56,708 nucleotides of DNA from the NCBI GenBank assembly GCA_964484505.1, contig CAZAFB010000008.1, positions 1-56,708 on the forward strand. Direction: 5' to 3'. Position 1 is the stretch's first letter. Each line of letters opens with the position of its first letter. This DNA comes from an uncultured Bdellovibrionales bacterium. GTDB taxonomy: Bacteria; Patescibacteriota; Minisyncoccia; Moranbacterales; GWC2-37-73. The notes beneath the pieces were generated by a model, which saw only the letters and a program-made list of their open reading frames with translations, did not search any database and was not told the origin of the DNA. The position numbers and the translations under genes were made by a program. Below, in pieces: positions 9,866 through 54,608 of the stretch.

Positions 9866-9925
9866 GGGGTATACTATTGCAGTGATAATGCACTAGTGAT
9901 AGAATAACAGCAGTTGAGTTTGTAA

Positions 9926-9947
9926 CGTTAAAAAGTTTATAACGTTT
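9926..9947 (+). repeat. Left 22-bp direct repeat flanking the ORF6N gene (TAACGTT family)
   Basis: CGTTAAAAAGTTTATAACGTTT, identical to 10546-10567. Confidence 0.9.
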
Positions 9948-9971
9948 ATAACGAAAGTGCAGGGTAAAAAT

Positions 9972-10562: not shown

Positions 10563-10592
10563 CGTTTGTAATGTTCATAACGTTTTTAACGA
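10546..10592 (+). repeat. Right direct repeat plus further TAACGTT units
   Basis: 22-bp exact copy at 10546-10567, overlapping the stop codon, then degenerate 9-nt units. Confidence 0.9.
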
Positions 10593-17276: not shown

Positions 17277-17363
17277 CGTTATAACGTTATAACGTTTTTA
17301 ACGTTTATAACGTTTTCTATTCGAGTTCTTTTAACGTTATAAACTTTATAAACGTTATGAACG
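17277..17363. repeat. TAACGTT-family periodic element (gene-free site)
   Basis: About eight 8-9-nt TAACGTT units; 17333-17347 is the reverse complement of the AAAGTTTATAACGTT core of the ORF6N flanks. Confidence 0.85.
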
Positions 17364-19170: not shown

Positions 19171-19238
19171 TGTCATGCTGAACTTGTTTCAGCATCTCGC
19201 TGGGCATCTCGAGATCCCGAAACAAGTTCGGGATGACA
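19171..19238. repeat. REP-like double palindrome (TGTCAT...ATGACA)
   Basis: TGTCATGCTGAACTTGTTTCAGCATCTC-N12-GAGATCCCGAAACAAGTTCGGGATGACA. Confidence 0.85.
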
Positions 19239-25062: not shown

Positions 25063-26517
25063 ATGAATTTTTTAATAATAAAGGGGAAAATAGCCAAGTT
25101 GCCACAGGCGCCGGGGGTGTACTTTTTCAGAGGTGCCGGCGGGGAGATTTTGTATATAGGGAAGGCGACGAATTTGAGGAGCAGGGTGCAGTCCTACTTT
25201 CGTGATACGAATACGCGAATAAATGCGAATGATGCAAATATGCGAATGGTTGCGAATGGCAATGCGGGGGAGTCGAACTCCCAAATGCAAAAAGGGAGTT
25301 CGACTCCCTTTACTGGCTTTGTGCCGGGGAGGAGTGAGTGGATCGGGAGGATGGTTTCTCTTGTCGGGGATATCGATTTTCAGGAAACAGATAGTGTTTT
25401 GGAAGCTCTTATTTTGGAAAGCAACCTGATCAAGAAGCACCAGCCGAAATATAATACGGATGAAAAGGATGATAAGAGTTTCGCCTACTTTGTTGTGACG
25501 AAGGAAGAATTTCCGAGAGTGATTATTTTACGAAAGACTGATATTGATAAATATGATTCTAATCTACGAATAAATGCTAATCAACGAATTGCGAATAAAT
25601 TCATAAAAGATATTGTAATTGATAAGGTTTATGGGCCTTACGTTTCCAAATACCAGATGCAGATTGCGTTGAAGATCATTCGGCGTATTTTTCCGTTTCA
25701 TGCTTTGAAACAAAAGAGCGAGAAGGGATGTTTGGATTATCAAATCGGCATGTGTCCGGGACCGTATGATGGTGCGATTTCGAAGGAGGATTACAAGAAG
25801 AATATTCGCGGTATCAAGATGATTTTGGAAGGGAAGAAGAAAAGTTTGATAAAGAGACTTGAGATAGAAATGCGAGAAGCTGCGAAAAAACATGAGTTTG
25901 AAAAAGCGGCGGATCTGCGCAACAAGATTTTTGCACTCCAGCACATTCGGGATATCGCGCTAATGACCAAAGAGTTTGAAGGCGATGCTCAAAGCTTAGC
26001 TTTAGGATTTCCTAAAGCTAAGCTTTTGGGCTTTGTGCGCATAGAAGCATATGATATCTCAAATATAAGTGGACAGCATGCGGTGGGGTCGATGGTTGTT
26101 TTTGTTGACGGCAAGCCGGATAAATCGCAGTATCGAAAATTCAAAATCAAAACCATCGAAGGCAGTGATGATGTCGGCATGATGCGGGAAGTTTTGCTTA
26201 GACGCTTTAAAAATGATTGGCCAATGCCCGAGTTGGTTTTATTGGATGGCGGACAAGGACATGTGAATATGGCAGAAAAACTTTTATATGAAGAATTGGG
26301 GTTGGCGGTGCCGATTGTGGGAGTGGCAAAGGGTGTAACCCGAAAAAATCTCAAATTACAAATTGCAAATTCCAAACAATATCCAAATGCTAAAATTAAA
26401 AACGAATCAAAAAGCGTTTTACAGAATAAACTTTTACTAAAGCAAATAATGGATGAGGCGCATCGGTTCGCGATTTCCTTTCATCGCAAGCTTCGTCGCA
26501 AAAGCTATCTTGCCTGA
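25063..26517 (+). CDS. uvrC: Excinuclease ABC subunit C, minimal form (no HhH), with three inserts
   Basis: GIY-YIG GVYFF...LYIGKATNLRSRV, UVR domain, RIEAYDISNISG, LLDGGQGH, DEAHRFA. Confidence 0.95.
   Translation: MNFLIIKGKIAKLPQAPGVYFFRGAGGEILYIGKATNLRSRVQSYFRDTNTRINANDANMRMVANGNAGESNSQMQKGSSTPFTGFVPGRSEWIGRMVSLVGDIDFQETDSVLEALILESNLIKKHQPKYNTDEKDDKSFAYFVVTKEEFPRVIILRKTDIDKYDSNLRINANQRIANKFIKDIVIDKVYGPYVSKYQMQIALKIIRRIFPFHALKQKSEKGCLDYQIGMCPGPYDGAISKEDYKKNIRGIKMILEGKKKSLIKRLEIEMREAAKKHEFEKAADLRNKIFALQHIRDIALMTKEFEGDAQSLALGFPKAKLLGFVRIEAYDISNISGQHAVGSMVVFVDGKPDKSQYRKFKIKTIEGSDDVGMMREVLLRRFKNDWPMPELVLLDGGQGHVNMAEKLLYEELGLAVPIVGVAKGVTRKNLKLQIANSKQYPNAKIKNESKSVLQNKLLLKQIMDEAHRFAISFHRKLRRKSYLA
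25204..25308 (+). repeat. In-frame composite insert in uvrC
   Basis: CGAAT/CAAAT arm followed by GGGAGTCGAACTCCC-N11-GGGAGTTCGACTCCC (exact inverted pair). Confidence 0.85.
25556..25600 (+). repeat. In-frame CGAAT-arm insert in uvrC
   Basis: CTACGAATAAATGCTAATCAACGAATTGCGAAT; encodes NLRINANQRIAN. Confidence 0.7.
26345..26408 (+). repeat. In-frame CAAAT-arm insert in uvrC
   Basis: CTCAAATTACAAATTGCAAATTCCAAACAATATCCAAATGCTAAAATT; encodes LKLQIANSKQYPNAKI. Confidence 0.75.
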
Positions 26518-26714
26518 AAATAATCATAGTTGTGTTTATTAAAAAGACTTATTTTTTGAAGCAGTTAGGCGATTGGGAAATAATGAATATATGCATGGCA
26601 CTACTTCATTGAAGGGAAGGTAATATAAAAGTGCAATAAAATGGTAAGTGTAGTAGTATATATTTGCATGTGCCTGCCGGTGCAGACAGGCATTTTTATT
26701 CTTAATGAAAAAAT

Positions 26715-27566
26715 ATGCAAGACAAAAAAGAGTTGATCAAAAATAATCCATCCATTGCAATGCTAGCCCCTGCTTTTATTCTGGATTTCAAATATCCGGC
26801 AATCATCGGCATGCTCAAAAAACTGGGGTTTGATATGGTGACTGAAGTAACCTATGGTGCGCAACTTGTGAACGCCGCCTATGCGAAATATATAACCGAA
26901 AATCCCGAGCAAGAACTATATATCGCATCGCCTTGTCCTACGGTAGTTTCCTTTATCAATGCGCAATATCCCGATCTTAGTAAATATTTGCTGCCTGTCG
27001 TTTCACCGATGGCGGCAATGTCCAGATTTTTGCGTAGCGCTTTTCCTGAACATAAAATCGTGTTCATTTCGCCATGTCTCGCCAAGCGCATTATCGAAGC
27101 GCCAAAGTATCCTGAATCCATAGATGATGTCGTGACTTTGCAGGAATTAAGAAACATGTTTGAGGAAGAGGGTATCAAAGAAGAAGATTTTGTGGAAAAC
27201 TATCTTTTCGATTCGGTTGTTACCGACGACACACGCATGTTTCCTGTTTCCGGTGGCTTGGCCGACACGGCGCATTTGGAAACTATCTTCAAAAAAGAAG
27301 AAATCCTAATTACAGACGGCGTGGCCAATCTCAAAAAAGCATTTGATGATTTTCGCGCGGGCAGCAGCCAATATCGTTTTATGGATATTCTCAATTGTGA
27401 CGGCGGCTGCATTGGCGGTCCGGCGATTAACAACAAATCTTTGAATCTGGACACTAAGCGCAAAGTAGTGAAAGAATACACGGAAACTGTTGCTGGACAC
27501 GAAAAAGAAAAACATGACACAAGCTTGTCAGATTCCGGTGAGGTGGATATGAAGTGGGGATACTAG
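26715..27566 (+). CDS. Stand-alone [FeFe]-hydrogenase large-subunit C-terminal-domain (Nar1/HydS-like) Fe-S protein
   Basis: IAMLAPA, ASPCPTVV (P1), FISPCLAKRIIE (P2), MDILNCDGGCIGGP (P3). Confidence 0.85.
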   Translation: MQDKKELIKNNPSIAMLAPAFILDFKYPAIIGMLKKLGFDMVTEVTYGAQLVNAAYAKYITENPEQELYIASPCPTVVSFINAQYPDLSKYLLPVVSPMAAMSRFLRSAFPEHKIVFISPCLAKRIIEAPKYPESIDDVVTLQELRNMFEEEGIKEEDFVENYLFDSVVTDDTRMFPVSGGLADTAHLETIFKKEEILITDGVANLKKAFDDFRAGSSQYRFMDILNCDGGCIGGPAINNKSLNLDTKRKVVKEYTETVAGHEKEKHDTSLSDSGEVDMKWGY

Positions 27567-27597
27567 ATCGTAAAAGAATTTTTAAAATTCTTTTACG

Positions 27598-27636
27598 CGC
27601 GGATTCACGCGGACTATACGCAGAAATACGCTGAAA
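27598..27636 (+). repeat. ACGCGGA/ACGCAGA periodic arm
   Basis: CGCGGATTCACGCGGACTATACGCAGAAATACGCTGAAA. Confidence 0.6.
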
Positions 27637-27644
27637 ATGAATAC

Positions 27645-27673
27645 AAAACGCTCCCATAAATGGGGAGTTTTTT
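27645..27673 (+). terminator. Intrinsic terminator
   Basis: CTCCC-ATAAATG-GGGAG with flanking A- and T-tracts. Confidence 0.6.
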
Positions 27674-27690
27674 GTGTATCGAAGCTTCTA

Positions 27691-27719
27691 TTTACATATT
27701 CCATTTTTGCTGCTATCAT
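27691..27719 (+). promoter_or_regulatory. Promoter of the second uvrA
   Basis: TTTACA-17-TATCAT with TG extension. Confidence 0.65.
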
Positions 27720-27753
27720 GTGTACTTAGCAAATACATAATACTTTCATCAAT

Positions 27754-30549
27754 ATGGCTTCCGCAAAAAAAATTGACGATATTGTGATCAAGGGTGCAAG
27801 GGTGAACAATCTCAAGAACATCGATGTGGCAATTCCGCGCAATAAGTTTGTCGTGGTCACCGGTCTTTCTGGTAGCGGCAAATCTTCCTTGGCATTCGAC
27901 ACGATCTATGCCGAAGGCAATCGCCGCTATATGGAAGGACTTTCTTCTTATGCGCGCAATTTCCTGGATCCTTCTGTGAAGCCGGATGTGGACAGGATTG
28001 AAAACTTGAGCCCGCCTATTTCTATTGATCAAAAAAGTGTGGCGCGTTCACCGCGTTCGACCGTGGGGACATTGACAGAAGTATATGACTACATTCGGAT
28101 TCTTTTTGCAAAGGTGGGCACCCTGCATTGTCCTGAGTGTGGCGCTTCCATGCAAAGAAGAAGCAACAGGGAAATTCTGGAAGAAGTATGTGCACTGCCA
28201 CATCACACCCATGTAGCCATTCTGGCTAAACCGCGCGACAAGGATGCTGATGCCCAAGCGGTGCTTTCTATGGTGCAACAGTCCGGATATGCGCGCGTAT
28301 GCGTTGGCGGCAAGATAATTGCGGTTACGGAAGCCCAAGGATATATCAAAGAACATTCAGATGCGGAAGTGGAAGTTGTGATTGATCGCATCATTTTCGA
28401 TCAAAAGAAGCAAGATCATGAAAGACTTCTCGATTCAATTGAGACGGCGATGAAATTGGGCAGTGGTGCGATGAATATTTTGATCGATGGAAATGAGAAA
28501 CGTTCATATAACCAAGATTTTTTTTGTGGTGATTGTGGCGTGAAAATTCGTGAAGTTACACCGAGACATTTTTCTTTCAATAGTCCGGAAGGAGCTTGTG
28601 ATAAATGCAGCGGATTGGGGTATACGTTGAAAGTAAATCCCGAGCTTGTAATTCCAAATAAGAATCTTTCTTTTGCGGAAGGTGCGATCCAACCTTGGAG
28701 CAAATCTGGCGGAAAGATTTCGAACAATAGTGCCAATATTCTGGCACTCAAAGCAATAGCCAAAGAACAAAAATTCTCGCTTGATGTGCCGATAAAAAAG
28801 CTGACCAAGAAGCAATTGGATTCGGTTCTTTTTGGCAATCTCGAAGGCAAAGGTGATTTTGCTGGAGTGGTTGGTGAGTTGGAAAAGAAATATCAAGAAA
28901 CCAAATCTGAATATATGCGGACGGAGATCGAGAAATATATGACTTTTCATGTTTGTTCTTCTTGCGATGGCAAGAGACTAAAGCCGGAATATTTGTCCGT
29001 ACGCATTTGTGGCAAAAATATCGATGATATAGTAAACATGGGCGTTACGGAGCTTAAAGATTTCTTGCTTGGCAATAAGGACTGGAAAGATACTGCCGTT
29101 GATGTTTCCGTAGTAAGCCAGTTGATCAAAGAAATTCAACAGCGGTTGGAAGCTCTGGAAAACGTAGGTTTGGAATATCTCAATTTGGGTAGAAGCGCCC
29201 AGACGATTTCTGGCGGAGAAGCACAGCGCATCCGTTTGGCAGCGCAACTCAATTCGCAGCTCATGGGAATAGTTTATGTTCTGGACGAGCCTTCAGTAGG
29301 ACTACATAGTCGCGATACGGAAAAATTGATTGCTACTTTGCGCAAGCTTCAGGATTTGGGAAATTCCTTGATAGTTGTTGAACATGATGAAAGTATTATT
29401 TCCGCTGCCGATTGGGTGATCGATATGGGACCGGGTGCGGGAAGCGAAGGAGGTATTGTCGTTTTTGAGGGAAATGTGCCGAAATTGCTGAAAGGAAAAA
29501 GTTTGACTGCGCAATATATGACCGGCAAGAAGAAGGTTTCTGAAAAAGCGAAGTATCGCAAAGGAAACGGCAAGCACATCGAAATTATAGGTGCAACTGA
29601 ACATAATCTCAAAAACGTGGATGTGAAAATCCCGCTCAAGAAATTCGTTTCGATCTGTGGCGTTTCCGGTAGCGGTAAATCCACTTTAGTGAACGATATT
29701 TTGGCCAAAGCACTTTCACGCCATTTTTTCAACGCGCGCGAATTGCCAGGAGCACACAAGAAAATTTCGGGACTCCAGCACATTGATAAGGTGATCAGTA
29801 TCGATCAGTCGCCAATCGGGCGCACACCGCGTTCCAATGCGGCAACATATACGGGAGTGTTTTCGCACATTCGCGAACTTTTCGCACAGGAAGAAGAATC
29901 CAAAAACCGCGGCTATACAGCGAGTCGTTTCAGTTTCAATATGAAAGGCGGACGCTGCGAAGTGTGCCAGGGTGAGGGATACAAAAAAATCGAAATGCAT
30001 CTTTTGCCGGACGTTTATGTAAAATGCGAAGCCTGTGATGGCACGCGTTATAGCAAAAAAACTTTGGAAATTGAATATAAGGGATTCAATGTGGCGCAAG
30101 TTCTGGATATGGATGTGCGTTTTGCGCTTAGATTTTTCGCCAAGCATCCTTTGATTGCCGAAAAACTGAAAACTATGGAGGACGTAGGTCTTGGATATCT
30201 TAAATTGGGACAAAGCGCGACCAATCTTTCCGGCGGCGAAGCACAGCGTATCAAGCTGGCGACGGAATTAGCTCGTAAATCTACAGGCAATACCTTATAT
30301 ATTTTGGATGAACCAACGGCAGGGCTTCATTTCGAGGATACTAAAAGACTTTTGGGTGTGCTCAATGCTTTGGTGGATAAGGGTAATACGGTTTTAGTGG
30401 TCGAGCACAATCTTGATGTGATCAATGAAGCAGACTGGGTAATCGAACTCGGTCCGGATGGAGGTAGCAGCGGCGGAGAATTGATATATGAAGGCACGCC
30501 GGATAAATTGAAGAAAAGCAAGAAGAGTTGGACAGCGAAGTACCTTTAA
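27754..30549 (+). CDS. uvrA: Excinuclease ABC subunit A paralog (copy 2)
   Basis: [49 protein letters not shown]; both ABC modules intact. Confidence 0.95.
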
Positions 30550-30550
30550 A

Positions 30551-30674
30551 GAACCACTTATTATCACATGATTACAATGATTTCACTGATTGTGTTTCTT
30601 GATTTATTATCATGTGTAATCAGCCCGCCATCCGCCAACTGGCGGAGGCGGAAATCAGTGCAAATCAGTGGTTC
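30551..30674. mobile_element. MITE-like element, copy 1 (GAACCAC...GTGGTTC)
   Basis: Terminal IR GAACCACT(G/T)ATT / AATCAGTGGTTC; nested CCGCCATCCGCCAACTGGCGGAGGCGG at 30625-30651. Confidence 0.75.
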
Positions 30675-31132
30675 TATAGCAGAAGCAATAAGATTGCGAT
30701 TGAACAGAAGATAATATCATTAACGGCATTGCGCAGGGTCCAATCATAGCGTGAGTCACCTTTCGGATAAGGATGGATCCATGCATGAAAGTCAAAAAGT
30801 TTTTTAAGAAAGTTGAAATGCAGTTTCCAGTAAAGCACGGTGAAAAGATCGGGAAGCATGGAGAAGAACATTCCGATCAGGATATTTCTGGCAATTTCCA
30901 GAGGGGGCATTGCAATGGCTATATAAAATATAACAATGCTGCAGCCTAGCAAGAGATCAATCGCAACTTTCCACCAAGTGCTGCGAACCGTGGAAGCTCG
31001 TCCCAGATATTCTCCGTGACGGAAAGTGTCAAGCGTGTAATGCAAAGCTATTGCAAGGGGAATCAGCAATAAAGGGCTGTGCACATATTTGCCAAGGGCA
31101 GCACCTGTGAGGGCGTGGGTAGTTAAGATCAT
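30674..31132 (-). CDS. Membrane protein, putative metal-dependent hydrolase (YdjM-like His/Asp pattern)
   Basis: MILTTHALTG...LHYTLDTFRH...MLPDL...FHAWIH, several TM helices; start moved to ATG 31132. Confidence 0.7.
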   Translation of the reverse strand: MILTTHALTGAALGKYVHSPLLLIPLAIALHYTLDTFRHGEYLGRASTVRSTWWKVAIDLLLGCSIVIFYIAIAMPPLEIARNILIGMFFSMLPDLFTVLYWKLHFNFLKKLFDFHAWIHPYPKGDSRYDWTLRNAVNDIIFCSIAILLLLL

Positions 31133-31144
31133 AAAAATAAATAT

Positions 31145-31261
31145 GAACCACTGATTATCACATGAAAGCACGTGATTTCACTGATAAGAAATTCAATCAT
31201 GTGTAATCAGTCCGCCATCCGCCAACTGGCGGAGGCGGAAATCAGAGTTAATCAGTGGTTC
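31145..31261. mobile_element. MITE-like element, copy 2
   Basis: GAACCACTGATTATCACATGA...AATCAGTGGTTC with the same nested palindrome at 31212-31238. Confidence 0.75.
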
Positions 31262-31269
31262 TTGCATCT

Positions 31270-31968
31270 ATGAATGGAATTTTATTTATTATCGCAACTC
31301 CCATCGGAAACCTTGAAGATATTACGCTTCGAGCTTTGCGCGTGCTGAAAGAAGCGGATGCGATTGCTTGTGAGGATACCAGGGTTACCAGAAAACTGCT
31401 TAATCATTATAGCATAGACACGCCGTGTGTTTCTTGCCATCAACATAGCGACAACGAAAAATTACAATCGCTAATTGATAAATTACTCACCGGACAAAAT
31501 ATAGCTTTGGTGACAGACGCTGGCACCCCGGGGATTTCGGATCCGGGCAATATTTTGGTACAAAAAGCGATTGAAAATGGAATTAAAGCAATTCCGATTC
31601 CCGGAGTTTCGGCGCTGGGTGCGTTAATAAGTGTGGCGGGAATAGACATGCAGAAATTTGTTTTTTTAGGTTTTCCGCCACACAAAAAAGGACGGGAAAC
31701 TTTCTTCAAAAACGTCGCAGCATACGAAATGCCTGTGATGTATTATGACTCGCCGCATCGGGTGATTAAAAATTTGGAATTGTTGAAAAATCTTTTGGAG
31801 GTTGAACCTCCAAGCGGAGGTTCAACCTCCACTAAGCGGATAATTGTTGGGCGGGAATTGACGAAGATGTTTGAGGAAATCGTGCGTGGCAATATTGAAG
31901 AAATTTTGGAATATTTTGAAAAGAATCCCGGGAAGGTTAAAGGGGAGTTTGTCTTAATAGTATTTTGA
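31270..31968 (+). CDS. rsmI: 16S rRNA (cytidine-1402-2'-O)-methyltransferase
   Basis: ATPIGNLEDITLRALRVLKE, ACEDTR, LVTDAGTPGISDPG, GRELTKMFEE, KGEFVLI. Confidence 0.97.
   Translation: MNGILFIIATPIGNLEDITLRALRVLKEADAIACEDTRVTRKLLNHYSIDTPCVSCHQHSDNEKLQSLIDKLLTGQNIALVTDAGTPGISDPGNILVQKAIENGIKAIPIPGVSALGALISVAGIDMQKFVFLGFPPHKKGRETFFKNVAAYEMPVMYYDSPHRVIKNLELLKNLLEVEPPSGGSTSTKRIIVGRELTKMFEEIVRGNIEEILEYFEKNPGKVKGEFVLIVF
31797..31830 (+). repeat. In-frame palindromic insert in rsmI
   Basis: GGAGGTTGAACCTCC-AAGC-GGAGGTTCAACCTCC; encodes EVEPPSGGSTS. Confidence 0.85.
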
Positions 31969-32036
31969 CTTACGTAGTAAGCCGCAAGAATGGAAAATGT
32001 TTGCGGAAATTTGCCAAGTGTGGGTATAATATGAAT

Positions 32037-33662
32037 ATGAAGAACGAAATTGAAAAATACCTTAAACAAGCCATTTTAGAGGTCGCAAAAAATGAAAATG
32101 CGGTCAGTTTAGATGAGTTCAAAATTGCCATAGACAGGCCTAAAGACGAACAATTTGGGGATTATACGACTAACATCGCTATGGTTTTGGCGAAGCCGCT
32201 CAAGAAGAGTCCGATGGAAATCGCGGAAGTGATCAAGGCTGAGATCCTTCGACTCGCTTCGCTTGCTCAGGATGACATACTAGAAAAGGTTGAAGTTGTT
32301 GCTCCCGGGTATATAAATTTTTATCTTTCGAAAAAATATTTTCAGGATAAAATTATTGAGATAAATGAAAAAGAAAATAAGTTTGGAAATTCTGAAATTG
32401 GCAAAGGTATAAAGGTGAACAATGAATTTATTTCAGCAAACCCTACCGGACCGTTGCATCTCGGCAATGGTCGCGGCGGATTTTTTGGTGATTCTCTTTC
32501 ACGCGTTTTGCGCAAGAGTGGATTTGAAGTCACGAATGAATATTATGTGAATGACGCAGGAGAGCAAACATTGAAATTGGCGCATAGCTTTAAAGGGGAT
32601 TCGGAAGCCGTATATGCAGGTGAATATATAGATGAAATGAGGGAAAAATATCCTGAATTACTTAGCAAGCCTGTTGAAACCTCGGCAGTCCAAGTTTCTG
32701 CGGTAGTTGTTATTGACTATATAAAACCAACTATTAATAAGATGAAAGTAGCTTTTGATAGTTGGACACATGAGAAAGCTCTTTATGATGAAGGCTATGT
32801 GGACAGAGCAATAAAAATACTGCAGGAAAAAAAGCTTACTTTTGAAAAAGATAATGCGCTTTGGCTCAGAACTACTGATTTTGGGGATGACAAGGATCGT
32901 GTGCTAGTGAAATCTGACGCTCAGAAAACATACTTTGCTTCTGATTGCGGTTATATTCTCAACAAAATGGAGCGTGGGTTTGATATAATGATTGAGACAT
33001 GGGGTGCTGACCATCATGGATATATTCAACGTTTCAAAGCTGCAGCCAAAGCACTTGGTTTTGAAGAAGAAAAAATTAGTTTTGAAATTGTACAGCTGGT
33101 GCGTCTTGTGAAAGATGGTAAGGAAGTTCGAATGAGTAAGCGTGCGGGGAATGTAGTATATATTGATGACCTTATTGAGGAAATCGGACACGATGTGACA
33201 CGCTTCTTTTTCTTGATGTATTCTCCTGATACTCACATGAATTTCGATCTGGGATTAGCGAAAGAACGATCGCAGAAAAACCCTGTGTTCTATGTGCAAT
33301 ACGCACATGCGCGTATTTGCAGCATCCTTACTAAGGCGGCCGATTTGGGAGTTCGAATCCCATCGGGGGAGTCGAACTTCCTTGAGGTGCTTGTACATGA
33401 AAAAGAAGTAAGTCTCATAAAAGAGCTGGAGAAATTTCCGGAGTTGGTGGAGGAGATCGCCGAGAGCTATGAAGTGCACAAATTGCCACACTATGCGATC
33501 AGGCTTGCGGATAAGTTCCATTCGTTCTACGATGCTTGTAGAGTGATTGATGAGGAAAACGAGGAACTCACGAAAGCCAGATTATCCCTGGTTCAAGCCA
33601 CAAAAATCGTTTTGGCTGAAACGCTAAGACTGATCGGAGTGGATGCGCCAGAGAAAATGTAA
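32037..33662 (+). CDS. argS: Arginine--tRNA ligase
   Basis: FGDYTTNIAM, SANPTGPLHLGNGRG, GADHHGY, MSKRAG, YVQYAHARICSIL, IGVDAPEKM. Start at ATG 32037 or 32031; the upstream extension overlaps a promoter. Confidence 0.98.
   Translation: MKNEIEKYLKQAILEVAKNENAVSLDEFKIAIDRPKDEQFGDYTTNIAMVLAKPLKKSPMEIAEVIKAEILRLASLAQDDILEKVEVVAPGYINFYLSKKYFQDKIIEINEKENKFGNSEIGKGIKVNNEFISANPTGPLHLGNGRGGFFGDSLSRVLRKSGFEVTNEYYVNDAGEQTLKLAHSFKGDSEAVYAGEYIDEMREKYPELLSKPVETSAVQVSAVVVIDYIKPTINKMKVAFDSWTHEKALYDEGYVDRAIKILQEKKLTFEKDNALWLRTTDFGDDKDRVLVKSDAQKTYFASDCGYILNKMERGFDIMIETWGADHHGYIQRFKAAAKALGFEEEKISFEIVQLVRLVKDGKEVRMSKRAGNVVYIDDLIEEIGHDVTRFFFLMYSPDTHMNFDLGLAKERSQKNPVFYVQYAHARICSILTKAADLGVRIPSGESNFLEVLVHEKEVSLIKELEKFPELVEEIAESYEVHKLPHYAIRLADKFHSFYDACRVIDEENEELTKARLSLVQATKIVLAETLRLIGVDAPEKM
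32241..32277 (+). repeat. In-frame half-REP insert in argS
   Basis: GAGATCCTTCGACTCGCTTCGCTTGCTCAGGATGACA, with the same termini as 19211-19238; encodes EILRLASLAQDD. Confidence 0.85.
33347..33381 (+). repeat. In-frame GGGAG-palindrome pair in argS
   Basis: GGGAGTTCGAATCCC-ATCGG-GGGAGTCGAACTTCC, same family as 25268-25308; encodes GVRIPSGESNF. Confidence 0.75.
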
Positions 33663-33669
33663 CAAATCA

Positions 33670-33778
33670 GAACCACTGATTATCACATGAGCACACATGA
33701 TTTCACTGAAATAAGTATAAAAAATAAATGCACCACAATCACGTGTAATCAGGATAATCACGTGGTAATCAGTGGTTC
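33670..33778. mobile_element. MITE-like element, copy 3 (no nested palindrome)
   Basis: GAACCACTGATTATCACATGA...AATCAGTGGTTC. Confidence 0.75.
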
Positions 33779-33786
33779 TGAAATAT

Positions 33787-34953
33787 ATGAAAATAGGAAT
33801 TGATGCCAGGACAATTTTGAATCCTGAAAAGGGAGACGCGATCGGCGTAGGGCATTATACCTATCAACTGATCCGTCATCTGCTCAAAAACGATACGGAA
33901 AACGAGTACGTCATTTTCTTTGATTTTCGTGTGCGTGAAAAGGATGTGAAAAAATTTACCAAGCCTAATGTGAAAATCAAATTCTATCCTTTTTCCGATT
34001 ACAAAAAATATATGCCGGGAGTATATAATGAAATTCTTGGCGCAGCTACTTTGCAGAAAGAAAAGCTTGATGTGTTGCATACGACGTCTCCGATGAGTCG
34101 CATCCCGCAATCATACACAGGAAAAACAATTGTTACTTTTCATGACATGGGAATGTTTGCGGTGGAAAAATATTATCCGGCACTTCGCCGTACACGCGCG
34201 AAAGTATTGTCGCGCATGATGGCAAAAAAGGCGGATCGCATAATTGCCGTATCGGAAGCTATCAAGAAAGAGATCGAACAATATCTTGAAGGTACGAATG
34301 GGAAAACGGATATTGTGCGCAGTGGAATCGATGCGAGATTTTTTCAAGATCCTGAGGATGGCAAGAAAGCATTGGAAAAATTCGGTATCAAGAAAAAATA
34401 TATTTTGTTTTTGGGAACACTTGAGCATTCCAAAAACATCGGCAGACTTTTGGAAGCTTTCGCCAAATTCAAGCAAAAGGAAACACAAGGCGGCAGCGAT
34501 AATTTCGAGTACCAATTGGTGCTTGCCGGCAAGCGTGGACATGACAGTGAATTTTTCAAGAAGAAAGCACAAGATTTGCAAATATCCAAAGACGTTGTTT
34601 TCACGGGATATGTTGTTGGTGATGAATTGGTGCCGCTGTTCAAAGGTGCAGAATTTTTCGTGATGCCTTCATTGTACGAAGGTTTCGGCATGACCGCCTT
34701 GGAAGCATTTGCAACCAAAACACCTTCGATTTTGGGCAAAATACCGACATTGGAAGAAATTGCGGGAGACGCGGCATATTTTGTTGATCCGAAAAGCACT
34801 GAGGAGATCGCGGAAGCTATCGGAAAATTTGCCCATGATGAAAACCTGAGGGAATCATATAGACAAAAAGGAATCGAAAGAGTCAAAGGATTTGATTGGG
34901 ACAAAACAGCGAAAGAGACACTAGAAATTTATAGGCAAGTTGCAGGAAAATAG
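33787..34953 (+). CDS. Glycosyltransferase family 4 (GT-B)
   Basis: MKIGIDAR, GVGHYT, TFHD, LFLGTLEHSKN, MPSLYEGFGMTALEA, FDWDKTAKET. Confidence 0.93.
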   Translation: MKIGIDARTILNPEKGDAIGVGHYTYQLIRHLLKNDTENEYVIFFDFRVREKDVKKFTKPNVKIKFYPFSDYKKYMPGVYNEILGAATLQKEKLDVLHTTSPMSRIPQSYTGKTIVTFHDMGMFAVEKYYPALRRTRAKVLSRMMAKKADRIIAVSEAIKKEIEQYLEGTNGKTDIVRSGIDARFFQDPEDGKKALEKFGIKKKYILFLGTLEHSKNIGRLLEAFAKFKQKETQGGSDNFEYQLVLAGKRGHDSEFFKKKAQDLQISKDVVFTGYVVGDELVPLFKGAEFFVMPSLYEGFGMTALEAFATKTPSILGKIPTLEEIAGDAAYFVDPKSTEEIAEAIGKFAHDENLRESYRQKGIERVKGFDWDKTAKETLEIYRQVAGK

Positions 34954-34978
34954 AATAAGATATATATTAAAAATGGAA

Positions 34979-35287
34979 AAGCGATGATGGAGATATCACT
35001 CCATCGCCCCGTTGAAATGTTCACTTTGTGAATTTCACGGGGCAAGCTGTGCGAAGAAAAGGCAAGCCGCCTTCGTCAAGACTACGGCGAGCCGCAGTAG
35101 AACGCATCGGGCAAGCCCGTAATAGCTGTAATTAAGTCGTGAAGCTCACAACTTGAATCTTGAAGTGAAAGTTTCAAGCTTTATGTTTCAAGTTTCACGA
35201 GAATTAAGGTGGTACCACGCCCAGATCACAGTCGCTCCCGAGCGATGTGACACGCGTCCTTATGCATTTTTTGCGTAGGGATTTTTT
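34979..35287 (+). ncRNA. T-box riboswitch (Ile, AUC specifier) with ultrashort Stem I and intrinsic terminator
   Basis: GATGGAG-ATATCA-CTCCATC; Stem II with AAGAA/AGTAGAA S-turn; IIA/B CGGGCAAGCCCG; antiterminator TAAGG-TGGTACC-ACGC / GCGT-CCTTA; terminator 35257-35287. Confidence 0.92.
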
Positions 35288-35295
35288 GTTTATCT

Positions 35296-35387
35296 CTACG
35301 AATTACGAATAGGTACGAAAGTACGAATGTGCAAAGATATTTATTATTTGTATATTTGTAAATTTGTAATTGATTTGTAATTTGTAG
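35296..35387. repeat. TACGAAT/ATTTGTA periodic element between the T-box and ileS
   Basis: Four TACGAA units, then five ATTTGTA-like units. Confidence 0.8.
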
Positions 35388-35397
35388 AACTAAAAAT

Positions 35398-38322
35398 ATG
35401 TTTAAGAAAGTAGATCAAAAACAACCATTTCCAAAAATGGAGGAAGAAATTCTGAAGTTTTGGGATGAAAATAGGGTGTTTGAAAAGTCGGTCAGTAATC
35501 GTGAGGGCGCCAAAAAATACAGTTTTTATGACGGTCCTCCGTTTGCAACCGGGTTGCCGCACTATGGCCATTTAGTGGCAAGTACAATGAAAGATGTTGT
35601 GCCACGCTATTGGACGATGCGCGGTTATCAAGTTGAGCGAAAATGGGGCTGGGATTGTCATGGCTTGCCGATCGAAAATATTGCAGAAAAGGCATTGGGA
35701 ATTTCCCATAAAAAAGACATTGAAAAAATGGGAGTGGATAAGTTCAACGAATTTTGTCGCACAACCGTCTTGAAATATGTTGATGAATGGAAAATTGTCA
35801 TCAATCGTCTCGGCCGCTGGGCTGACATGGAAAATAGTTATAAGACGATGGATCTTTCGTATATGGAATCGGTGTGGTGGGTGTTTAAACAACTTTGGGA
35901 CAAAGGATTGATTTACGAAGGGTATCGTTCAATGCATGTATGTACGCGCTGCGAAACTACACTTTCCCAACAAGAAGTAAGTGAAGGATACAAGGATATA
36001 AAGGACTTATCCGCAATTGCCAAATTCGAACTGATAGACGAACCGGGGACGTTTGTTTTGGCATGGACGACAACGCCATGGACATTGATTGGTAATGTGG
36101 CGTTAGCAGTTGGGAAGGATATTGAATATGCAAAAATCAGAACCACTGATTCTCACATGAAAACACATGATTGCACTGAGCATTTTATTATCGCAAAGGA
36201 AAGGTTAGTTGAACTTTTTGCGGATAAAAAATATGAAGTAATTGATAAATTTAAAGGCAGTGATTTAATTGATAAAAACTACAAACCACTCTTTGATTAT
36301 TACCAAAACAAAGGTCTGGAAAATGAGGAAAACGGCTGGAAAATATATGCTGCGGATTTTGTGACTACGGAAGAAGGAACGGGCGTGGTACATATTGCGC
36401 CAGCTTTTGGTGAAGATGACCTGAATCTAAGTTATCAATATAAATTGCCATTCATTCAACACGTTGGCATGGATGGACTTATCAAGAAAGAGGTGGGAGA
36501 ATTTGCGGGACTCAGCGTGAAACCATTGGAAAACCATATGAGCACAGATATTGAAATTATCAAATATTTGGCTCATAGTAATCTGCTGTTTTTTAAGGAA
36601 AAATACGAACACAGCTATCCACATTGCTGGAGATGTGATACGCCTCTAATCAATTACGCGACATCTTCGTGGTTTGTCAAAGTTACTGATATTAAAGAAA
36701 AAGCACTGGAATTGGCCAAGGAAATCAATTGGTCACCGGCACATATGAAAGAAGGACGTTTCGGCAATTGGCTTGAGGGAGCTCGCGATTGGTCAATTTC
36801 GCGCCAACGTTACTGGGCTTCTGTTATGCCGATTTGGAGGTGTGAATGTGGCGAAGTGAAAGTGATGGGGTCGGTGGCGGAGCTCGAAGAATTGAGTGGT
36901 AAAAAAATAACCGATCTGCACAAACATGTTGTCGATGGAATCACGTTGAAGTGCGATAAATGCAGTGGTGAGATGAAAAGAATTCCTGATGTCTTGGATA
37001 CATGGTTTGATAGCGGCTCGATGCCGTATGCACAAGTGCATTATCCCTTCGAGAACAAAGAGAAGTTTGACGCGGGATTCCCGGCGGAGTTTATTGCGGA
37101 AGGAGTGGATCAGACGCGCGCATGGTTCTATTACCTGCATATTATTGCGTCTGCAATCAAGGAGAAGCCGGCTTTTAAGAATGTTATTGTGAATGGAATT
37201 GTGTTGGCTGAGGACGGGAAGAAGATGAGTAAGAGGCTGCAGAATTATCCCGACCCGAGTTTTGTGTTTGAAAAATATGGCGCCGATGCTCTGCGATTTT
37301 ATCTGATGTCGTCGCCGGTTGTTGCAGCTGATAATTTGAATTTCAAGGAAAATGATGTAGCTGATTTGATTCGTGGTATGTTCCGCATGCTTTGGAATTC
37401 ATATTCTTTTTTTGTGATGTATGCAAACATCGATGGCTTTCAGTCGTCAATAGCGACAAGCAACAAGCGACAAGCGACAAGTCTTCTCGACAGATGGATT
37501 TTGTCGGAACTCAACGTTCTTATTAATGATGTGAATCGTCATATGGAGGCGTATGAATTGCATAAGGCCGCAAGGTTATTTCCAAAATTCATTGATAATC
37601 TTTCCAATTGGTATATTCGCAGATCGCGTAAACGTTTTTGGAAATCGGAAAATGATACGGATAAGAACGAGGCTTATGCGACCTTGCATCATGTGCTGGT
37701 GACACTTTCGCAACTCATGGCGCCGTTTACACCGTTTGTGGCAGAAGAAATTTATAGAAATCTTACAGGGGAAGAATCTGTCCATCTCTCTGATTTTCCT
37801 GCGGTTGATGAAAAGATGATTGATGAGAAATTGAACGAACAAATGAACGCGGCGCGGGAAATTGTGAGCGCAGGTCTTCAAAAACGCGCGGAGGCGAAAA
37901 TAAAAGTGCGTCAGCCTTTGGCGAGCGCAACTGTTTTTGTGGAGCTCTCCGAAGAATTGAAGGAGATTGTGAAGGAAGAACTGAATGTAAAAACGATAGT
38001 TTTGGGAGATTTGGAAAATAGGGGGGATTTGGGAAATGTGGTGTTGAACACGGAAATTACTGAAGAGTTGAAGTTGGAGGGGCAGGCGAGGGAGGTGATT
38101 CGCGCAATTCAGGAGATGCGAAAATCAGCCGGCTTTGAGGTTGACAATCGCATAAATATATGCTATAATGGATTGTCAAAAGTTTTTGGAAAGTTCGGCG
38201 ATTTGATTGCCAAAGAAACGCTTTCCCAAGCCCTAAGTGAAGGAAAAATGGCAGAAGCTGATTTGGAAAAGGATTTTACGATTGATAATGAAAGCGTTAT
38301 AATAGGAATAAAGAGAGTTTAA
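35398..38322 (+). CDS. ileS: Isoleucine--tRNA ligase (type 2)
   Basis: DGPPFATGLPHYGH, GWDCHGLP, WTTTPWTL, DWSISRQRYW, GVDQTRAWFY, KMSKR. Confidence 0.99.
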   Translation: MFKKVDQKQPFPKMEEEILKFWDENRVFEKSVSNREGAKKYSFYDGPPFATGLPHYGHLVASTMKDVVPRYWTMRGYQVERKWGWDCHGLPIENIAEKALGISHKKDIEKMGVDKFNEFCRTTVLKYVDEWKIVINRLGRWADMENSYKTMDLSYMESVWWVFKQLWDKGLIYEGYRSMHVCTRCETTLSQQEVSEGYKDIKDLSAIAKFELIDEPGTFVLAWTTTPWTLIGNVALAVGKDIEYAKIRTTDSHMKTHDCTEHFIIAKERLVELFADKKYEVIDKFKGSDLIDKNYKPLFDYYQNKGLENEENGWKIYAADFVTTEEGTGVVHIAPAFGEDDLNLSYQYKLPFIQHVGMDGLIKKEVGEFAGLSVKPLENHMSTDIEIIKYLAHSNLLFFKEKYEHSYPHCWRCDTPLINYATSSWFVKVTDIKEKALELAKEINWSPAHMKEGRFGNWLEGARDWSISRQRYWASVMPIWRCECGEVKVMGSVAELEELSGKKITDLHKHVVDGITLKCDKCSGEMKRIPDVLDTWFDSGSMPYAQVHYPFENKEKFDAGFPAEFIAEGVDQTRAWFYYLHIIASAIKEKPAFKNVIVNGIVLAEDGKKMSKRLQNYPDPSFVFEKYGADALRFYLMSSPVVAADNLNFKENDVADLIRGMFRMLWNSYSFFVMYANIDGFQSSIATSNKRQATSLLDRWILSELNVLINDVNRHMEAYELHKAARLFPKFIDNLSNWYIRRSRKRFWKSENDTDKNEAYATLHHVLVTLSQLMAPFTPFVAEEIYRNLTGEESVHLSDFPAVDEKMIDEKLNEQMNAAREIVSAGLQKRAEAKIKVRQPLASATVFVELSEELKEIVKEELNVKTIVLGDLENRGDLGNVVLNTEITEELKLEGQAREVIRAIQEMRKSAGFEVDNRINICYNGLSKVFGKFGDLIAKETLSQALSEGKMAEADLEKDFTIDNESVIIGIKRV
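36140..36179 (+). repeat. In-frame left arm of the GAACCAC MITE in ileS
   Basis: GAACCACTGATTCTCACATGAAAACACATGATTGCACTGA; encodes RTTDSHMKTHDCT. Confidence 0.85.
37452..37479 (+). repeat. In-frame heptamer array in ileS
   Basis: AGCGACA-AGCAACA-AGCGACA-AGCGACA; encodes ATSNKRQAT. Confidence 0.75.
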
Positions 38323-38583: not shown

Positions 38584-38787
38584 ATGAACACCAATTTGTA
38601 TTTTAAAGGAGATTTTTTTGATCTCCAGAAAGTTGTCGATAATCTGAAGGCCTCCGGTCTTCAGCAAAAAATTGACAAACAGATTGCTGAGGGTGATGAC
38701 TATTGCCCTCAGCCGGGAATTATCTGGGTGATCTGGGATGACATAATCGTCCCGATCGCCAAGGGGATTGGCAAAGCACTGCTTTAG
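38584..38787 (+). CDS. Small peptide (67 aa) with an amphipathic C-terminus
   Basis: SD AAGGGGGG; MNTNLYFKGDFFDLQK...CPQPGIIWVIWDDIIVPIAKGIGKALL. Confidence 0.65.
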   Translation: MNTNLYFKGDFFDLQKVVDNLKASGLQQKIDKQIAEGDDYCPQPGIIWVIWDDIIVPIAKGIGKALL

Positions 38788-38849: not shown

Positions 38850-38927
38850 GTCTTAAAAAGTTTTTATCTATGTGCGCGTGGAGGTTCAACCTCTAAAAAT
38901 ATGCTAAAATTAGATAGAACATGGATC

Positions 38928-43615: not shown

Positions 43616-46600
43616 ATGAAACCAAGGGCGAATCATTTTAAGAGACATTTTTTCCTAGGCGCAAGCTTTTTCGCGATGGTTTTTTTGTTTTTTTCTCATA
43701 ATGCTAACGCGGCAACCATTACTTGGGATGGATCATCCTCAACTGATTGGGCTACTGCAGCAAACTGGGTTGGCGATGCGGTGCCTACCTCCACTGATGA
43801 CGTGGTTATCAATGGCAGTTATACAAATGCTCCCATCCTCAATCTTTCCGCCGGTGCGGTTACGGTAAATTCTCTCTCTGTCGGATCAAGTGCAACATCG
43901 GTGGTGACCGTTTCCAATGGAGATATCGATACCAAAAAACTTATAGTTACGGGAGATGTAACGATCGGAGCAAGCGGAACTTTGACTCACACAGCCAATT
44001 CCAGCGCTGAGACACACAGACTTTCTTTGCAGGTAGGGGGCAACATGACGATAGTTTCAGGTGGCTCAATTAGTATCAACAGCAAAGGTTATACAGGCAC
44101 AAGTGGTAATGGTCGTGGTCCAGGTGCCGGAGGGGGAGGCGATATTAATCAGCGTGGTAGTGGTGGGGGTCATGGCGGCAAGGGCGCTAGCACTACAACG
44201 CATGCAGGCGGTACCACTTATGACTCCATAACACAGCCTGCAATGATAGGTTCTTCGGGCGGAACTTGTTCTCGTGCAGCTTATGGCGGTGCTGGCGGTG
44301 GCGCTGCAAAAATTGTGGTAGGGGGAACATTAACTTTGGAAGGAGCATTGACGGCAGTGGGTGGCAATGGAATTACTGATAAGTGTTCCGGCGGTGGTTC
44401 GGGAGGAGCTATTTGGGTTGTTGCTGGAAATTTAACAGGTGCTGGATCGATTAATGCAAATGGAGGCACTTCATATAACAATGATTTAACTTCTGCCAGC
44501 GGTGGCGGTGGTGGAAGAATAGCAATTGAATATACCACAAGTTCTTTTTCTGGAGCCATTACCGCTTTTGGTAAGACCGGCTATGCCTATGGAGGTGCGG
44601 GAACAATCTATTTGAAGCAGGGAACAAACAATGGCGATCTTATTGTTGATAATAATTCAGTGGCTGGTGCGGATACGCTGCAGCTTGCCGGAACTAACTT
44701 CACTTTTGATAATGTAACAATTACGAAATCGGCAAAATATGTAATCCCGGATACTTCCAGCTTGGCAGCTTCTGTAAGTCTCTCCGCAAATTCAGTTGAC
44801 GCAACGATAACTGTTAACAGCGGTGGCTCAATGACATTACCCGCCAGTCAAAATTCTCTAGCTTATTTTTCCATAGCCAATAGCGGAACAGTCAATGTCT
44901 CGCAATCAAATTTTTCTATTTCCAACGGAACAATTACGAATAACGGAACAATAACGGGCATATCGAACTTAACTTTGTCATCAGTTACTTTCTATCAAAA
45001 CGGAACGCTTACTGGAATAACTGATCTTATTGTCGGCGCGTCATCAACTTTTGAATTTCAAAATCTTACACCCTCAACACCTTTCAATTTAAATAGCTTG
45101 ACTATTCAAAGCAGCGGAGTTTTAACGCATAAAGGAAATTCTTCAACAGAAGCGTATACTCTTAATTTGAATATTTCCGGCAATCTAGATGTGCAATCTG
45201 GCGGTTCGATTAATCTGAACAGCAAAGGTTATACAGGCACAAGTGGTAATGGTCGTGGTCCAGGTGCCGGAGGGGGAGGCGATATTAATCAGCGTGGTAG
45301 TGGTGGGGGTCATGGCGGCAAGGGCGCTAGCACTACAACGCATGCAGGCGGTACCACTTATGACTCCATAACACAGCCTGCAATGATAGGTTCTTCGGGC
45401 GGAACTTGTTCTCGTGCAGCTTATGGCGGTGCTGGCGGTGGCGCTGCAAAAATTGTGGTAGGGGGAACATTAACTTTGGAAGGAGCATTGACGGCAGTGG
45501 GTGGCAATGGAATTACTGATAAGTGTTCCGGCGGTGGTTCGGGAGGAGCTATTTGGGTTGTTGCTGGAAATTTAACAGGTGCTGGATCGATTAATGCAAA
45601 TGGAGGCACTTCATATAACAATGATTTAACTTCTGCCAGCGGTGGCGGTGGTGGAAGAATAGCAATTGAATATACCACAAGTTCTTTTTCTGGAGCCATT
45701 ACCGCTTTTGGTAAGACCGGCTATGCCTATGGAGGTGCGGGAACAATCTATTTGAAGCAGGGAACAAACAATGGCGATCTTATTGTTGATAATAATTCAG
45801 TGGCTGGTGCGGATACGCTGCAGCTTGCCGGAACTAACTTCACTTTTGATAATGTAACAATTACGAAATCGGCAAAATATGTAATCCCGGATACTTCCAG
45901 CTTGGCAGCTTCTGTAAGTCTCTCCGCAAATTCAGTTGACGCAACGATAACTGTTAACAGCGGTGGCTCAATGACATTACCCGCCAGTCAAAATTCTCTA
46001 GCTTATTTTTCCATAGCCAATAGCGGAACAGTCAATGTCTCGCAATCAAATTTTTCTATTTCCAACGGAACAATTACGAATAACGGAACAATAACGGGCA
46101 TATCGAACTTAACTTTGTCATCAGTTACTTTCTATCAAAACGGAACGCTTACTGGAATAACTGATCTTATTGTCGGCGCGTCATCAACTTTTGAATTTCA
46201 AAATCTTAACGCTTCTACGCCTTTTAATCTTAGCAATCTCACGGTCCTAAGTGGAGGAACAATAACTCACAAAGCAAATTCCTCAACAGAAACGTATACC
46301 TTGAACTTGAATATTTCAGGTGATTTTGATTTGCAATCCGGAGGAGCGATAAGTCTTAATGGTAGGGGTTATGTCGGGAAAAGTGGTACGGGATATGGTC
46401 CGGGTGCTGGTGCAGGCGGTGATTTAAATGCTTATGGCGCCGGTGGTGGATATGGAGGTAAGGGAGGAAACGGAAGAGCGGGCTTAGTTGGGGGGTCGCC
46501 GTATGGATCAATTGTACAACCTGTAAATATTGGTTCATCAGGTGGAGCAGCAACAGCAACATCAGGATCTGGCGGTGGTGCTGTAAAGATAATTGTCGGA

Positions 46601-54413: not shown

Positions 54414-54491
54414 TGAATTATGAAGTAAAAATTAGGAATTAAGATAAAAGGAATTGCATCTTTCATAATTCATAAATCATAATTCATAATT
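54412..54491. repeat. ATGAATT/AATTCAT heptamer quasi-palindromic element
   Basis: Left arm ATGAATTATGAA...AGGAATT, right arm TTCATAATTCATAAATCATAATTCATAATT. Confidence 0.75.
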
Positions 54492-54552
54492 TCCGGGCTA
54501 ATGTTGCCCCTTTTTTTATTTACGGTTATAGTATAGGAGAATCTGTGGGCTA

Positions 54553-54608
54553 ATTTTGTTCGTAGATTCGTCCGCCAGCTGGCGGAGTAATTCGTAGTTT
54601 CGTATCGG
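54553..54608. repeat. ATTCGTA arm with nested TCCGCCAGCTGGCGGA palindrome
   Basis: Palindrome at 54571-54586 is the same family as the insert in MITE copies 1 and 2. Confidence 0.7.

Follow-up and report, generated by a model that had tools for sequence, protein, structure and literature searches.

Short palindromic repeats of a Moranbacteria contig share their arms with a small element encoding a GxxExxY protein

The repeats of the window and their GxxExxY-encoding relatives

The window, by which we mean the whole 56,708-nt stretch of DNA analysed here, contains three short palindromic elements devoid of an open reading frame (ORF), and a lone arm of the same type inside ileS. Comparison with public sequences suggested that these repeats are probably ORF-less derivatives of a small palindromic element that encodes a GxxExxY protein and belongs to a family widespread in Patescibacteria. 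Homologues of the window's isoleucyl-tRNA synthetase (IleRS) assign the host to Candidatus Moranbacteria (best match 98% identical, on a Logan contig; next match 76%).

The three full elements (copies 1-3, Table 1) and the lone left arm were confirmed by direct reading of the window sequence, and a repeat search recovered the same family (repeat entries D6, D8, D10 and I12). All three copies open with GAACCACT(G/T)ATT and close with AATCAGTGGTTC. With up to three mismatches allowed, the 21-mer GAACCACTGATTATCACATGA occurs five times in the window and not once in 100 shuffles. The original prediction, made from the letters of the window, described copies of 124, 117 and 109 bp with 12-bp terminal inverted repeats. 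Direct reading and the repeat search both returned the same copy lengths, and the ends are indeed inverted, but the arms detected by nhmmer are longer, about 45 nt. Outward extension of the copy 3 arms reaches TCWGA.

An exact 21-mer scan of one genome per species yielded 44 loci in approximately 28 metagenome-assembled genomes (MAGs), mostly of Moranbacteria, Parcubacteria/Paceibacterota and Falkowbacteria, with a few bins under other labels. For almost every hit a partner arm was found 77-490 nt away, so nearly all loci have paired arms. No arm copy was found in the viral contigs searched. To trace copies in the host genome we relied on the depth of contigs from runs X1, X2 and X7. Contigs at host depth (78-99) carry at least two to three ORF-less copies besides the window's own, which brings the host genome to about 7-8 loci: one ORF-bearing unit and about seven ORF-less copies, those of the window included. 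The window copies are thus not alone, and the proposal that they belong to a dispersed family resembling miniature inverted-repeat transposable elements (MITEs) held both across MAGs and within the genome of the window. The runs listed as holding the window sequence number 24, all marked as DNA; no dedicated search for RNA runs was made. The organism attains about 90x in biofilm, wastewater and digester samples.

At two loci (L020 and L039) arms of the window family enclose a single 128-aa ORF, which fills the loop of an element of 485-489 bp. The ORF product matches GxxExxY (TIGR04256, E = 5e-39) and PDDEXK_3 (PF13366, E = 3e-37), and no other Pfam or NCBIfam family. Metagenome-contig and protein-database searches, in which the encoding contigs were looked up, gave ten distinct loci encoding proteins that share at least 77% identity with that of L020 (L020, L039, L047, L048, L049, L107, L132, L133, L139 and L141). 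Both arms were present at all ten. The ORF-bearing relatives span 485-545 bp, with the arms packed tightly round one gene. The gene neighbourhood is different at each of the ten loci (e.g. between parB and relA, ORF6N and a 639-aa gene, DUF2304 and GT2, or T2SS-ATPase and ruvB); the arm-gene unit occurs in at least ten contexts.

The window's own genome contains such a unit. In run X1 a 3640-nt contig with a depth of 91.6 (window, about 90) carries both arms, left and right, at a distance of 485 nt, and its translation reads MKKYVD... past the left arm and ...EVKRYVK, followed by a stop, ahead of the right arm. The matching depth, the paired arms and the flanking translation indicated an ORF-bearing copy in the genome from which the window derives.

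More distant GxxExxY genes, at 59-73% identity to the query, lack window-type arms. Even so, 31 of the 61 testable distant loci are flanked by inverted repeats whose score exceeds that of the best of 20 shuffles by at least 6. Their arms share one design, in which a TGTCTGAA terminus is joined by about four sub-repeats of the NNNNGATT kind. Outermost stands (T)GTCTGAA(C/T), and about four tandem units of 9-11 nt follow, each closing with GATT or a similar sequence; subfamilies differ in the variable part of these units (CACTGATT, TTGGATT, CAGGATT, GTTGATT, TATGATT, AGAATT, CACAGAT). GTCWGAA upstream together with TTCWGAC downstream was found at 30/57 distant loci, compared to 4/57 in a reversed-orientation control. 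The outer bases of the subfamilies are often of the TG..CA type (TGTCTGAA...TTCAGACA).

The GxxExxY protein satisfies the usual description of the PD-(D/E)XK superfamily by its conserved residues, its PF13366 match and a weak fold match. The glutamate of QEVIY, the aspartate of RRxDF and the ExK of the ExKA motif are kept in at least 90% of 79 homologues. The AlphaFold AF2 model (predicted local distance difference test score 84) matched PD-(D/E)XK nucleases alone, although weakly (best E 2e-3, TM-score at most 0.53); the matches include Cas4, lambda-exonuclease-like enzymes, the R2 endonuclease domain, restriction enzymes and resolvases. A sequence search of the PDB gave no meaningful match. 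The family comprises at least about 8,000 cluster representatives, and a survey of the superfamily gives the function of PF13366 as 'Unknown' (PMC3424549).

The original prediction called for an autonomous insertion sequence (IS) with matching ends. What emerged was a partner whose ends match but whose gene product is the PD-(D/E)XK-fold GxxExxY protein; no transposase was found. This result bears on the possibility that the repeats are classical MITEs, deletion derivatives of an IS whose DDE or other known transposase is encoded elsewhere in the genomes, with GxxExxY as cargo. The window repeats have the form expected of MITEs: terminal inverted repeats, a size below about 600 bp, no ORF, an AT-rich centre, intergenic location and subterminal repeats that resemble transposase-binding sites; the TG..CA-type outer bases of many subfamilies also fit. 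However, the roughly 50 paired-arm elements do not exceed about 550 bp, and none of them encloses an ORF except GxxExxY, and arms and GxxExxY travel together in the ten contexts. The fixed-length target-site duplication characteristic of MITEs, whose presence had been proposed as a check, is also missing: in 45 elements, compared at every offset and length, no regular duplication was detected (best 5/45 for 4 nt and 8/45 for 2 nt). We therefore consider a conventional MITE origin unlikely.

In the model we favour, the GxxExxY protein would bind the sub-repeats of both arms, cut at the conserved termini and move or copy the unit. The ORF-less copies would be internal-deletion derivatives acted on in trans, like MITEs by IS, or like doublets of repetitive extragenic palindromic (REP) sequences (REPINs) by REP-associated tyrosine transposases (RAYTs). 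New copies would insert where only a few bases separate a stop codon from the following start and would leave no regular target-site duplication, and the GC-rich palindrome nested in two of the window copies (see below) would represent a second, independent small insertion. Mobilisation by the GxxExxY nuclease is what we infer from this arrangement. More tentatively, GxxExxY/PDDEXK_3 proteins might be the mobilising nucleases of previously unrecognised, ultra-compact elements (about 0.5 kb), which shed ORF-less palindromes that fill the spacers from stop to start codon in streamlined genomes and occasionally become coding. The ends of such elements would consist of about four helically phased NNNNGATT-type putative binding sites capped by GTCWGAA.

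Several observations weigh against this model. The copy number in the host genome is low, about 7-8 loci. One protein of the family (P0312) was found on 71 contigs in one gene context only, which suggests a widespread organism, not a multi-copy gene. In addition to the absence of a regular target-site duplication, no clean empty site was seen for the element family, the relatives' spacers holding other sub-repeat palindromes. We know of no transposition activity for PDDEXK_3. All genome-level evidence comes from MAGs or metagenome contigs. Two further points, small genes of another family in analogous frames and the conservation of the arm inside ileS, are described below with the explanation that they favour.

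Arm structure, gene spacing and the hairpin alternative

An arm hidden Markov model was built from public copies, and 22 short elements were aligned. Their consensus is AATCAGAACCACTGATT-ATCACATGA-nnn-CACnTGATT-TCACTGAA (AT-rich loop) TTCAnGTG-CAATCAGGA-TAATCAGTG-CTAATCAGTGGTTCAGA. The arm begins with the terminus (G)TCWGAAC, which is followed by four CAC(N)TGA(TT) sub-repeats. By direct reading, the TGA cores are spaced by 9-12 nt (mean about 10.3), near one helical turn, thus the sub-repeat sites would lie on the same face of the DNA. The sub-repeat is common to both arms but its register differs, and pairing is possible only in the outer 14-16 bp and in a few inner blocks. Because of this difference in register the middle of the stem is poorly paired.

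An alternative to the GxxExxY-driven element is that the short palindromes are primary, and tolerated or used by the host. They would then be transcript hairpins, similar to REP, ERIC or intervening sequences (IVS), with a role in processing, stability or termination, and the small ORFs would ride along as passengers, or be selfish genes of a homing type that enter the loop via arm homology. We regard this explanation as doubtful, but it accounts for several of the observations. As single strands the elements fold into long imperfect hairpins (DNA z -4.7 to -7.7; copy 1, z -6.7). The pattern of substitutions did not favour a stem. Compensatory changes were found at none of the 27 consensus pairs of the 22 aligned elements: all pairs were invariant, nearly invariant or changed on one side only, and near-invariance makes the covariation test uninformative for a stem. 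The W of TCWGAAC, which is the sole variable position of the basal stem, is complementary in only 7/21 elements and counts weakly against pairing. Since the pairs show no compensatory change and the W is rarely complementary, the conserved feature in this alignment is the primary sequence, pairing not being demonstrable. Moreover, the GTCWGAA terminus persists in subfamilies whose sub-repeats have changed, and looks more like a recognition or cleavage site of a protein. An Rfam scan of 40 GxxExxY loci gave no rRNA match.

The position of the elements relative to genes is more in line with transcript hairpins. Fifty-nine of 81 element ends lie within 12 nt of a gene, and the spacing is quantised: an outward-facing gene starts exactly 8 nt past GTGGTTC at 15/31 ends, and the stop codon of an incoming gene, typically TAA, abuts TCWGAAC at 11/30 ends. 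The window spacers that hold copies 1-3 are almost wholly occupied by the elements. Copy 1 begins one base past the uvrA stop codon, the outer TCW of its left end being replaced by the uvrA stop context, and its final base is shared with the stop codon of the 152-aa ORF. The rsmI ATG starts 8 nt past the GTGGTTC of copy 2. Copy 3 fills the argS-GT4 spacer, starting 7 nt past the argS stop codon, and its GTGGTTC end lies 8 nt before the GT4 ATG. The preference of arm type for gene starts as opposed to stops (16/12 versus 9/14) was not significant. The spacing rule could reflect either target choice, with few bases available between stop and start, or a constraint on the expression of the next gene.

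Shine-Dalgarno-like motifs were found at 2/32 gene starts (long ORFs of the window), and TATAAT lies 0-12 nt before the ATG at many of the window's gene starts, for example that of argS (gtgggtataatATG). The scarcity of Shine-Dalgarno motifs and the start-proximal TATAAT suggest leaderless mRNAs or mRNAs with very short leaders. In copies 2 and 3 the left-type arm includes an outward promoter-like sequence, GTGAAA-16-TGtGATAAT. A promoter/terminator consensus scan gave 17 promoter-like sites against 14.5 expected, which means no overall enrichment in the region.

Other small genes occur in frames of similar layout. In L147 (positions 2525-3000) a 23S_rRNA_IVP (PF05635) gene encoding a four-helix bundle is framed by inverted GTAATT/AATTAC arrays between GT4 and ileS. 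L148 has the corresponding empty site (2995-3010), in which the GT4 stop codon overlaps the ileS start; the ileS proteins of the two species are 83% identical. In L139 (1100-1625) arrays of 8-nt AGAGAGTT / AACTCTCT units enclose another 23S_rRNA_IVP gene. It lies within a glycosyltransferase cluster, as does the GxxExxY element about 460 nt downstream of it. The presence of these genes in analogous frames of different sequence indicates that small ORFs could be passengers in a hairpin carrier, a view put forward for rRNA IVS (PMC4990558). In support of the hairpin explanation it can also be mentioned that 23S rRNA IVS are stem-plus-ORF units cut by RNase III (PMC4990558), and that the relatives' orthologous spacers always contain some palindromic sub-repeat array.

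The left arm inside ileS is translated, as had been proposed. In frame it gives RTTDSHMKTHDCTE (IRTTDSHMKTHDCTE for 36136-36180), within a hypervariable loop of IleRS: most homologues read K(V/I)K-TGDEL-LILAK, the window KIR-TTDSHMKTHDCTE-HFIIAK. By direct reading, stop codons interrupt all but one of the left arm's three forward frames, and the open frame is the one used in ileS. Four ileS lineages (window/P0001, P0002/P0049, P0018/P0021 and P0030) have this arm in common, with identical boundaries and frame. These lineages are not mutual nearest relatives; monophyly of the carriers was not recovered in a neighbour-joining distance tree, and the nearest relative of P0030 (P0050, 83%) lacks the arm. 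Third-codon identity between the window and L045 was 93% in the arm and 49% gene-wide, the arm being the maximum of all 15-codon windows, and the three sequenced ileS carriers differ at positions where intergenic arms also vary. Such synonymous-site conservation suggests that the arm is held at the nucleic-acid level or is repeatedly converted. Its persistence across species also fits a host- or RNA-level function, as the hairpin explanation would have it. Other repeat-derived peptides occupy the same IleRS loop in P0100, P0107 and P0109.

Upstream of ileS, positions 34975-35264 gave a very weak full-length match to the T-box leader (24.9 bits, E = 0.0013; gathering score 93). The T-box-like stretch includes GGTGGTACCACG and a terminator-like hairpin at 35256-35282. 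At the gathering score Rfam gave no match in the window, and neither did a tRNA scan.

The flanked gene, the nested palindrome and other repeats

Copies 1 and 2 lie in direct orientation on the two sides of an opposite-strand gene, as the original prediction had described, and this arrangement had been put forward as a repeat-flanked cassette. The right halves of the two copies are 94% identical, nested palindrome included, and L040 (1806-2403) has a comparable layout, in which two 98%-identical ORF-less direct copies flank a small gene of about 410 bp. Both features would suit a composite mobile unit that carries the 152-aa gene. The distribution of the gene argues otherwise. Its family is spread through Moranbacteria, with 163 homologues that are about 152 aa long, and the order uvrA - 152-aa ORF (opposite strand) - rsmI - argS - GT4 is kept in L129 (85%), L127 (73%) and L130/L131 (71%). 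At these four loci no arm of the window family was detected (nhmmer, E <= 1); the gene is thus syntenic between uvrA and rsmI at the same site and on the same strand without the repeats, an outcome that had been named beforehand as speaking against the cassette. Moreover, copies 1 and 2 of a sister strain differ by the nested palindrome. The synteny in relatives free of window-family arms indicates that the gene is resident, and that the repeats entered or replaced the content of the flanking spacers. By this comparison the 152-aa gene is an ordinary resident between two occupied spacers, not mobile cargo, and we consider the cassette very improbable. The 'membrane hydrolase' label once attached to the gene is not supported either: the ORF has no Pfam or NCBIfam match above threshold, DUF2062 (E 0.0066) being weak and below the cut-off.

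The relatives' spacers are not empty; a different palindrome occupies each, made up of short sub-repeats in tandem (GAATT/AATTC, GGATTT, AAATCAAAA, TACAT and others). The spacer palindrome of L130 resembles a worn copy of a TTGGATT-subfamily GxxExxY arm.

The palindrome nested in the right arms of copies 1 and 2 conforms to its first description: the 27-nt CCGCCATCCGCCAACTGGCGGAGGCGG is identical in the two copies and missing from copy 3, and a relative lies near 54571 (at 54572 in our reading). In a 97.3%-identical strain (L046; contigs of X8 and X20) copy 1 retains the palindrome, whereas copy 2 lacks it and reads ...TGTAATCAG directly followed by GATAATCAG..., which is the family consensus. 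The palindrome of copy 2 thus reflects a recent, separate, strain-polymorphic event. It came about either through conversion of a short tract, with copy 1 (594 bp away) as donor, or through fresh insertion at that very point. GC-rich palindromes of other sequence interrupt right arms in L027 and L139, which supports the element-into-element insertion suggested earlier. Elsewhere in the window, a 21-nt stretch (38633-38653) is absent from the same L046 strain, and there is a 5-nt difference at 38559.

Palindromes were also found within coding sequence. A GC-rich one in rsmI (GGAGGTTGAACCTCC..GGAGGTTCAACCTCC, 31796-31831) is translated in frame as LEVEPPSGGS; it is present in L129 and absent from the rsmI of L127 and L130, and a related arm lies at 38875-38898. 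In argS two further GC-rich palindromic stretches fall in variable loops, 32245-32282 (ILRLASLAQDD) and 33340-33375 (GVRIPSGESNF), and the argS of relatives varies in length at both.

Sub-repeat arrays were located in the spacers 9920-9953, 10540-10591, 17279-17362, 25203-25257, 35290-35390 and 54408-54492. Their units, in tandem or inverted, are TTTATAACG, ATGCGAAT, TACGAAT / TTTGTAA and TTCATAA. Such palindromic arrays seem to be typical of the lineage's spacers in general, the orthologous spacers of relatives carrying different ones. At 19171-19238 there is a 29-nt inverted repeat (86% complementary; TGTCATGCTGAACTTGTTTCAGCATCTCG / CGAGATCCCGAAACAAGTTCGGGATGACA) that ends about 10 nt before a gene start. 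A 300-nt direct repeat with 98% identity (44057-44356 and 45197-45496, 1140 nt apart) is apparently a recent tandem duplication in a repetitive coding region.

Table 1. Positions of the repeat elements, nested palindromes and neighbouring genes in the window
Feature	Position	Strand	Remarks
Copy 1, ORF-less element	30551-30674, 124 nt	+	between convergent uvrA-like gene and 152-aa gene
Copy 2, ORF-less element	31145-31261, 117 nt	+	between divergent 152-aa gene and rsmI
Copy 3, canonical ORF-less element (TCAGAACCAC...GTGGTTCTGA)	33670-33778, 109 nt; 33667-33781 with outer bases	+	
Left arm alone in ileS	36140-36179 (36136-36180 at widest)	+	nhmmer and in-frame translation
Nested palindrome, copy 1 right arm (CCCGCCATCCGCCAACTGGCGGAGGCGGA)	30624-30652; 27-nt core at 30625		
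Nested palindrome, copy 2 right arm	31211-31239; 27-nt core at 31212		
Related GC palindrome CCGCCAGCTGGCGG	54572-54585		nested in a different, TTCGTA sub-repeat array
UvrA-like gene	27754-30549	+	
152-aa conserved hypothetical ORF	30674-31132	-	syntenic, resident
rsmI	31270-31968		
argS	32031-33662		
GT4 glycosyltransferase gene	33787-34953		
ileS	35398-38322		

Comparison with known systems

The repeats alone are ordinary. What is out of the ordinary is that phased inverted sub-repeat arrays with a conserved terminus regularly frame genes of PF13366/TIGR04256, the closest members having the arms of the window; a literature search found no paper linking GxxExxY (PF13366/TIGR04256) to inverted repeats. 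If the protein does act on the arms, the unit would amount to a minimal mobile element that relies on a restriction-enzyme-like fold, and the GxxExxY family would gain a function. It would also offer an origin and a mechanistic model for IVS-like units consisting of a stem and a small ORF, and would help to explain how spacers build up and turn over in the ultra-small genomes of Patescibacteria, and how repeat DNA becomes protein in the essential ileS.

The 23S rRNA IVS are units of approximately 0.1-0.75 kb with inverted-repeat borders able to form a stem, and sometimes contain a small ORF of unknown function; long suspected to be relics of mobile DNA, their nature has been open since the 1990s (PMC4990558). 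Our elements resemble them as inverted-repeat units with a small ORF, and an IVS-type PF05635 gene occupies an analogous frame in L139 and L147. They were not classed as IVS: Rfam found no gathering-score match in the window and no rRNA in the 40 loci, and the ORF is GxxExxY, not S23p.

Two other systems were considered and rejected. In TIGR-Tas, a Tas gene with a Nop domain adjoins tandem units that have dual spacers and box C/D-like motifs and are processed into RNAs of 36 nt (PMC12045711). Compared with that paper's description, our sub-repeats are 9-12 nt long and arranged in two inverted sets, and Pfam gave no Nop-domain hit in eight window genes (25063-38322). Integron attC sites and cassettes did not fit either, the ends being TCWGAAC...GTTCWGA versus RYYYAAC ... 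GTTRRRY, the neighbours being housekeeping genes and the flanked gene being syntenic.

In size (90-125 bp), inverted ends, AT-rich centre and tight intergenic sites the repeats are similar to bacterial MITEs (Correia/NEMIS, ERIC, Nezha) and to Rickettsia palindromic elements, and with the latter they also share that part of one copy is read in frame in a housekeeping gene, here ileS. Unlike these, they have a 128-aa partner with a nuclease fold, no DDE-transposase parent was found and no regular target-site duplication, and ileS contains one arm only.

In Tn7 a PD-(D/E)XK nuclease takes part in end cleavage. Like the ends of Tn7 (TnsA/TnsB) and Mu, the ends described here have several repeated sites and conserved outermost bases, but the element has no DDE partner, ATPase or target selector and encodes a single small gene in about 0.5 kb.

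The REPIN-RAYT system, in which REP doublets are dispersed by a REP-flanked, usually single-copy gene for a Y1 transposase-like enzyme, differs in that the framed gene here specifies (by Pfam and NCBIfam) a PD-(D/E)XK-fold GxxExxY protein and not an IS200/IS605-type Y1 enzyme. The ends differ as well, four phased sub-repeats with a TCWGAAC terminus versus a GTAG-headed REP hairpin, and the copies amount to a handful versus hundreds. Both systems nevertheless consist of intergenic palindromes and one gene per genome that is framed by inverted repeats, the ORF-less units being the more numerous.

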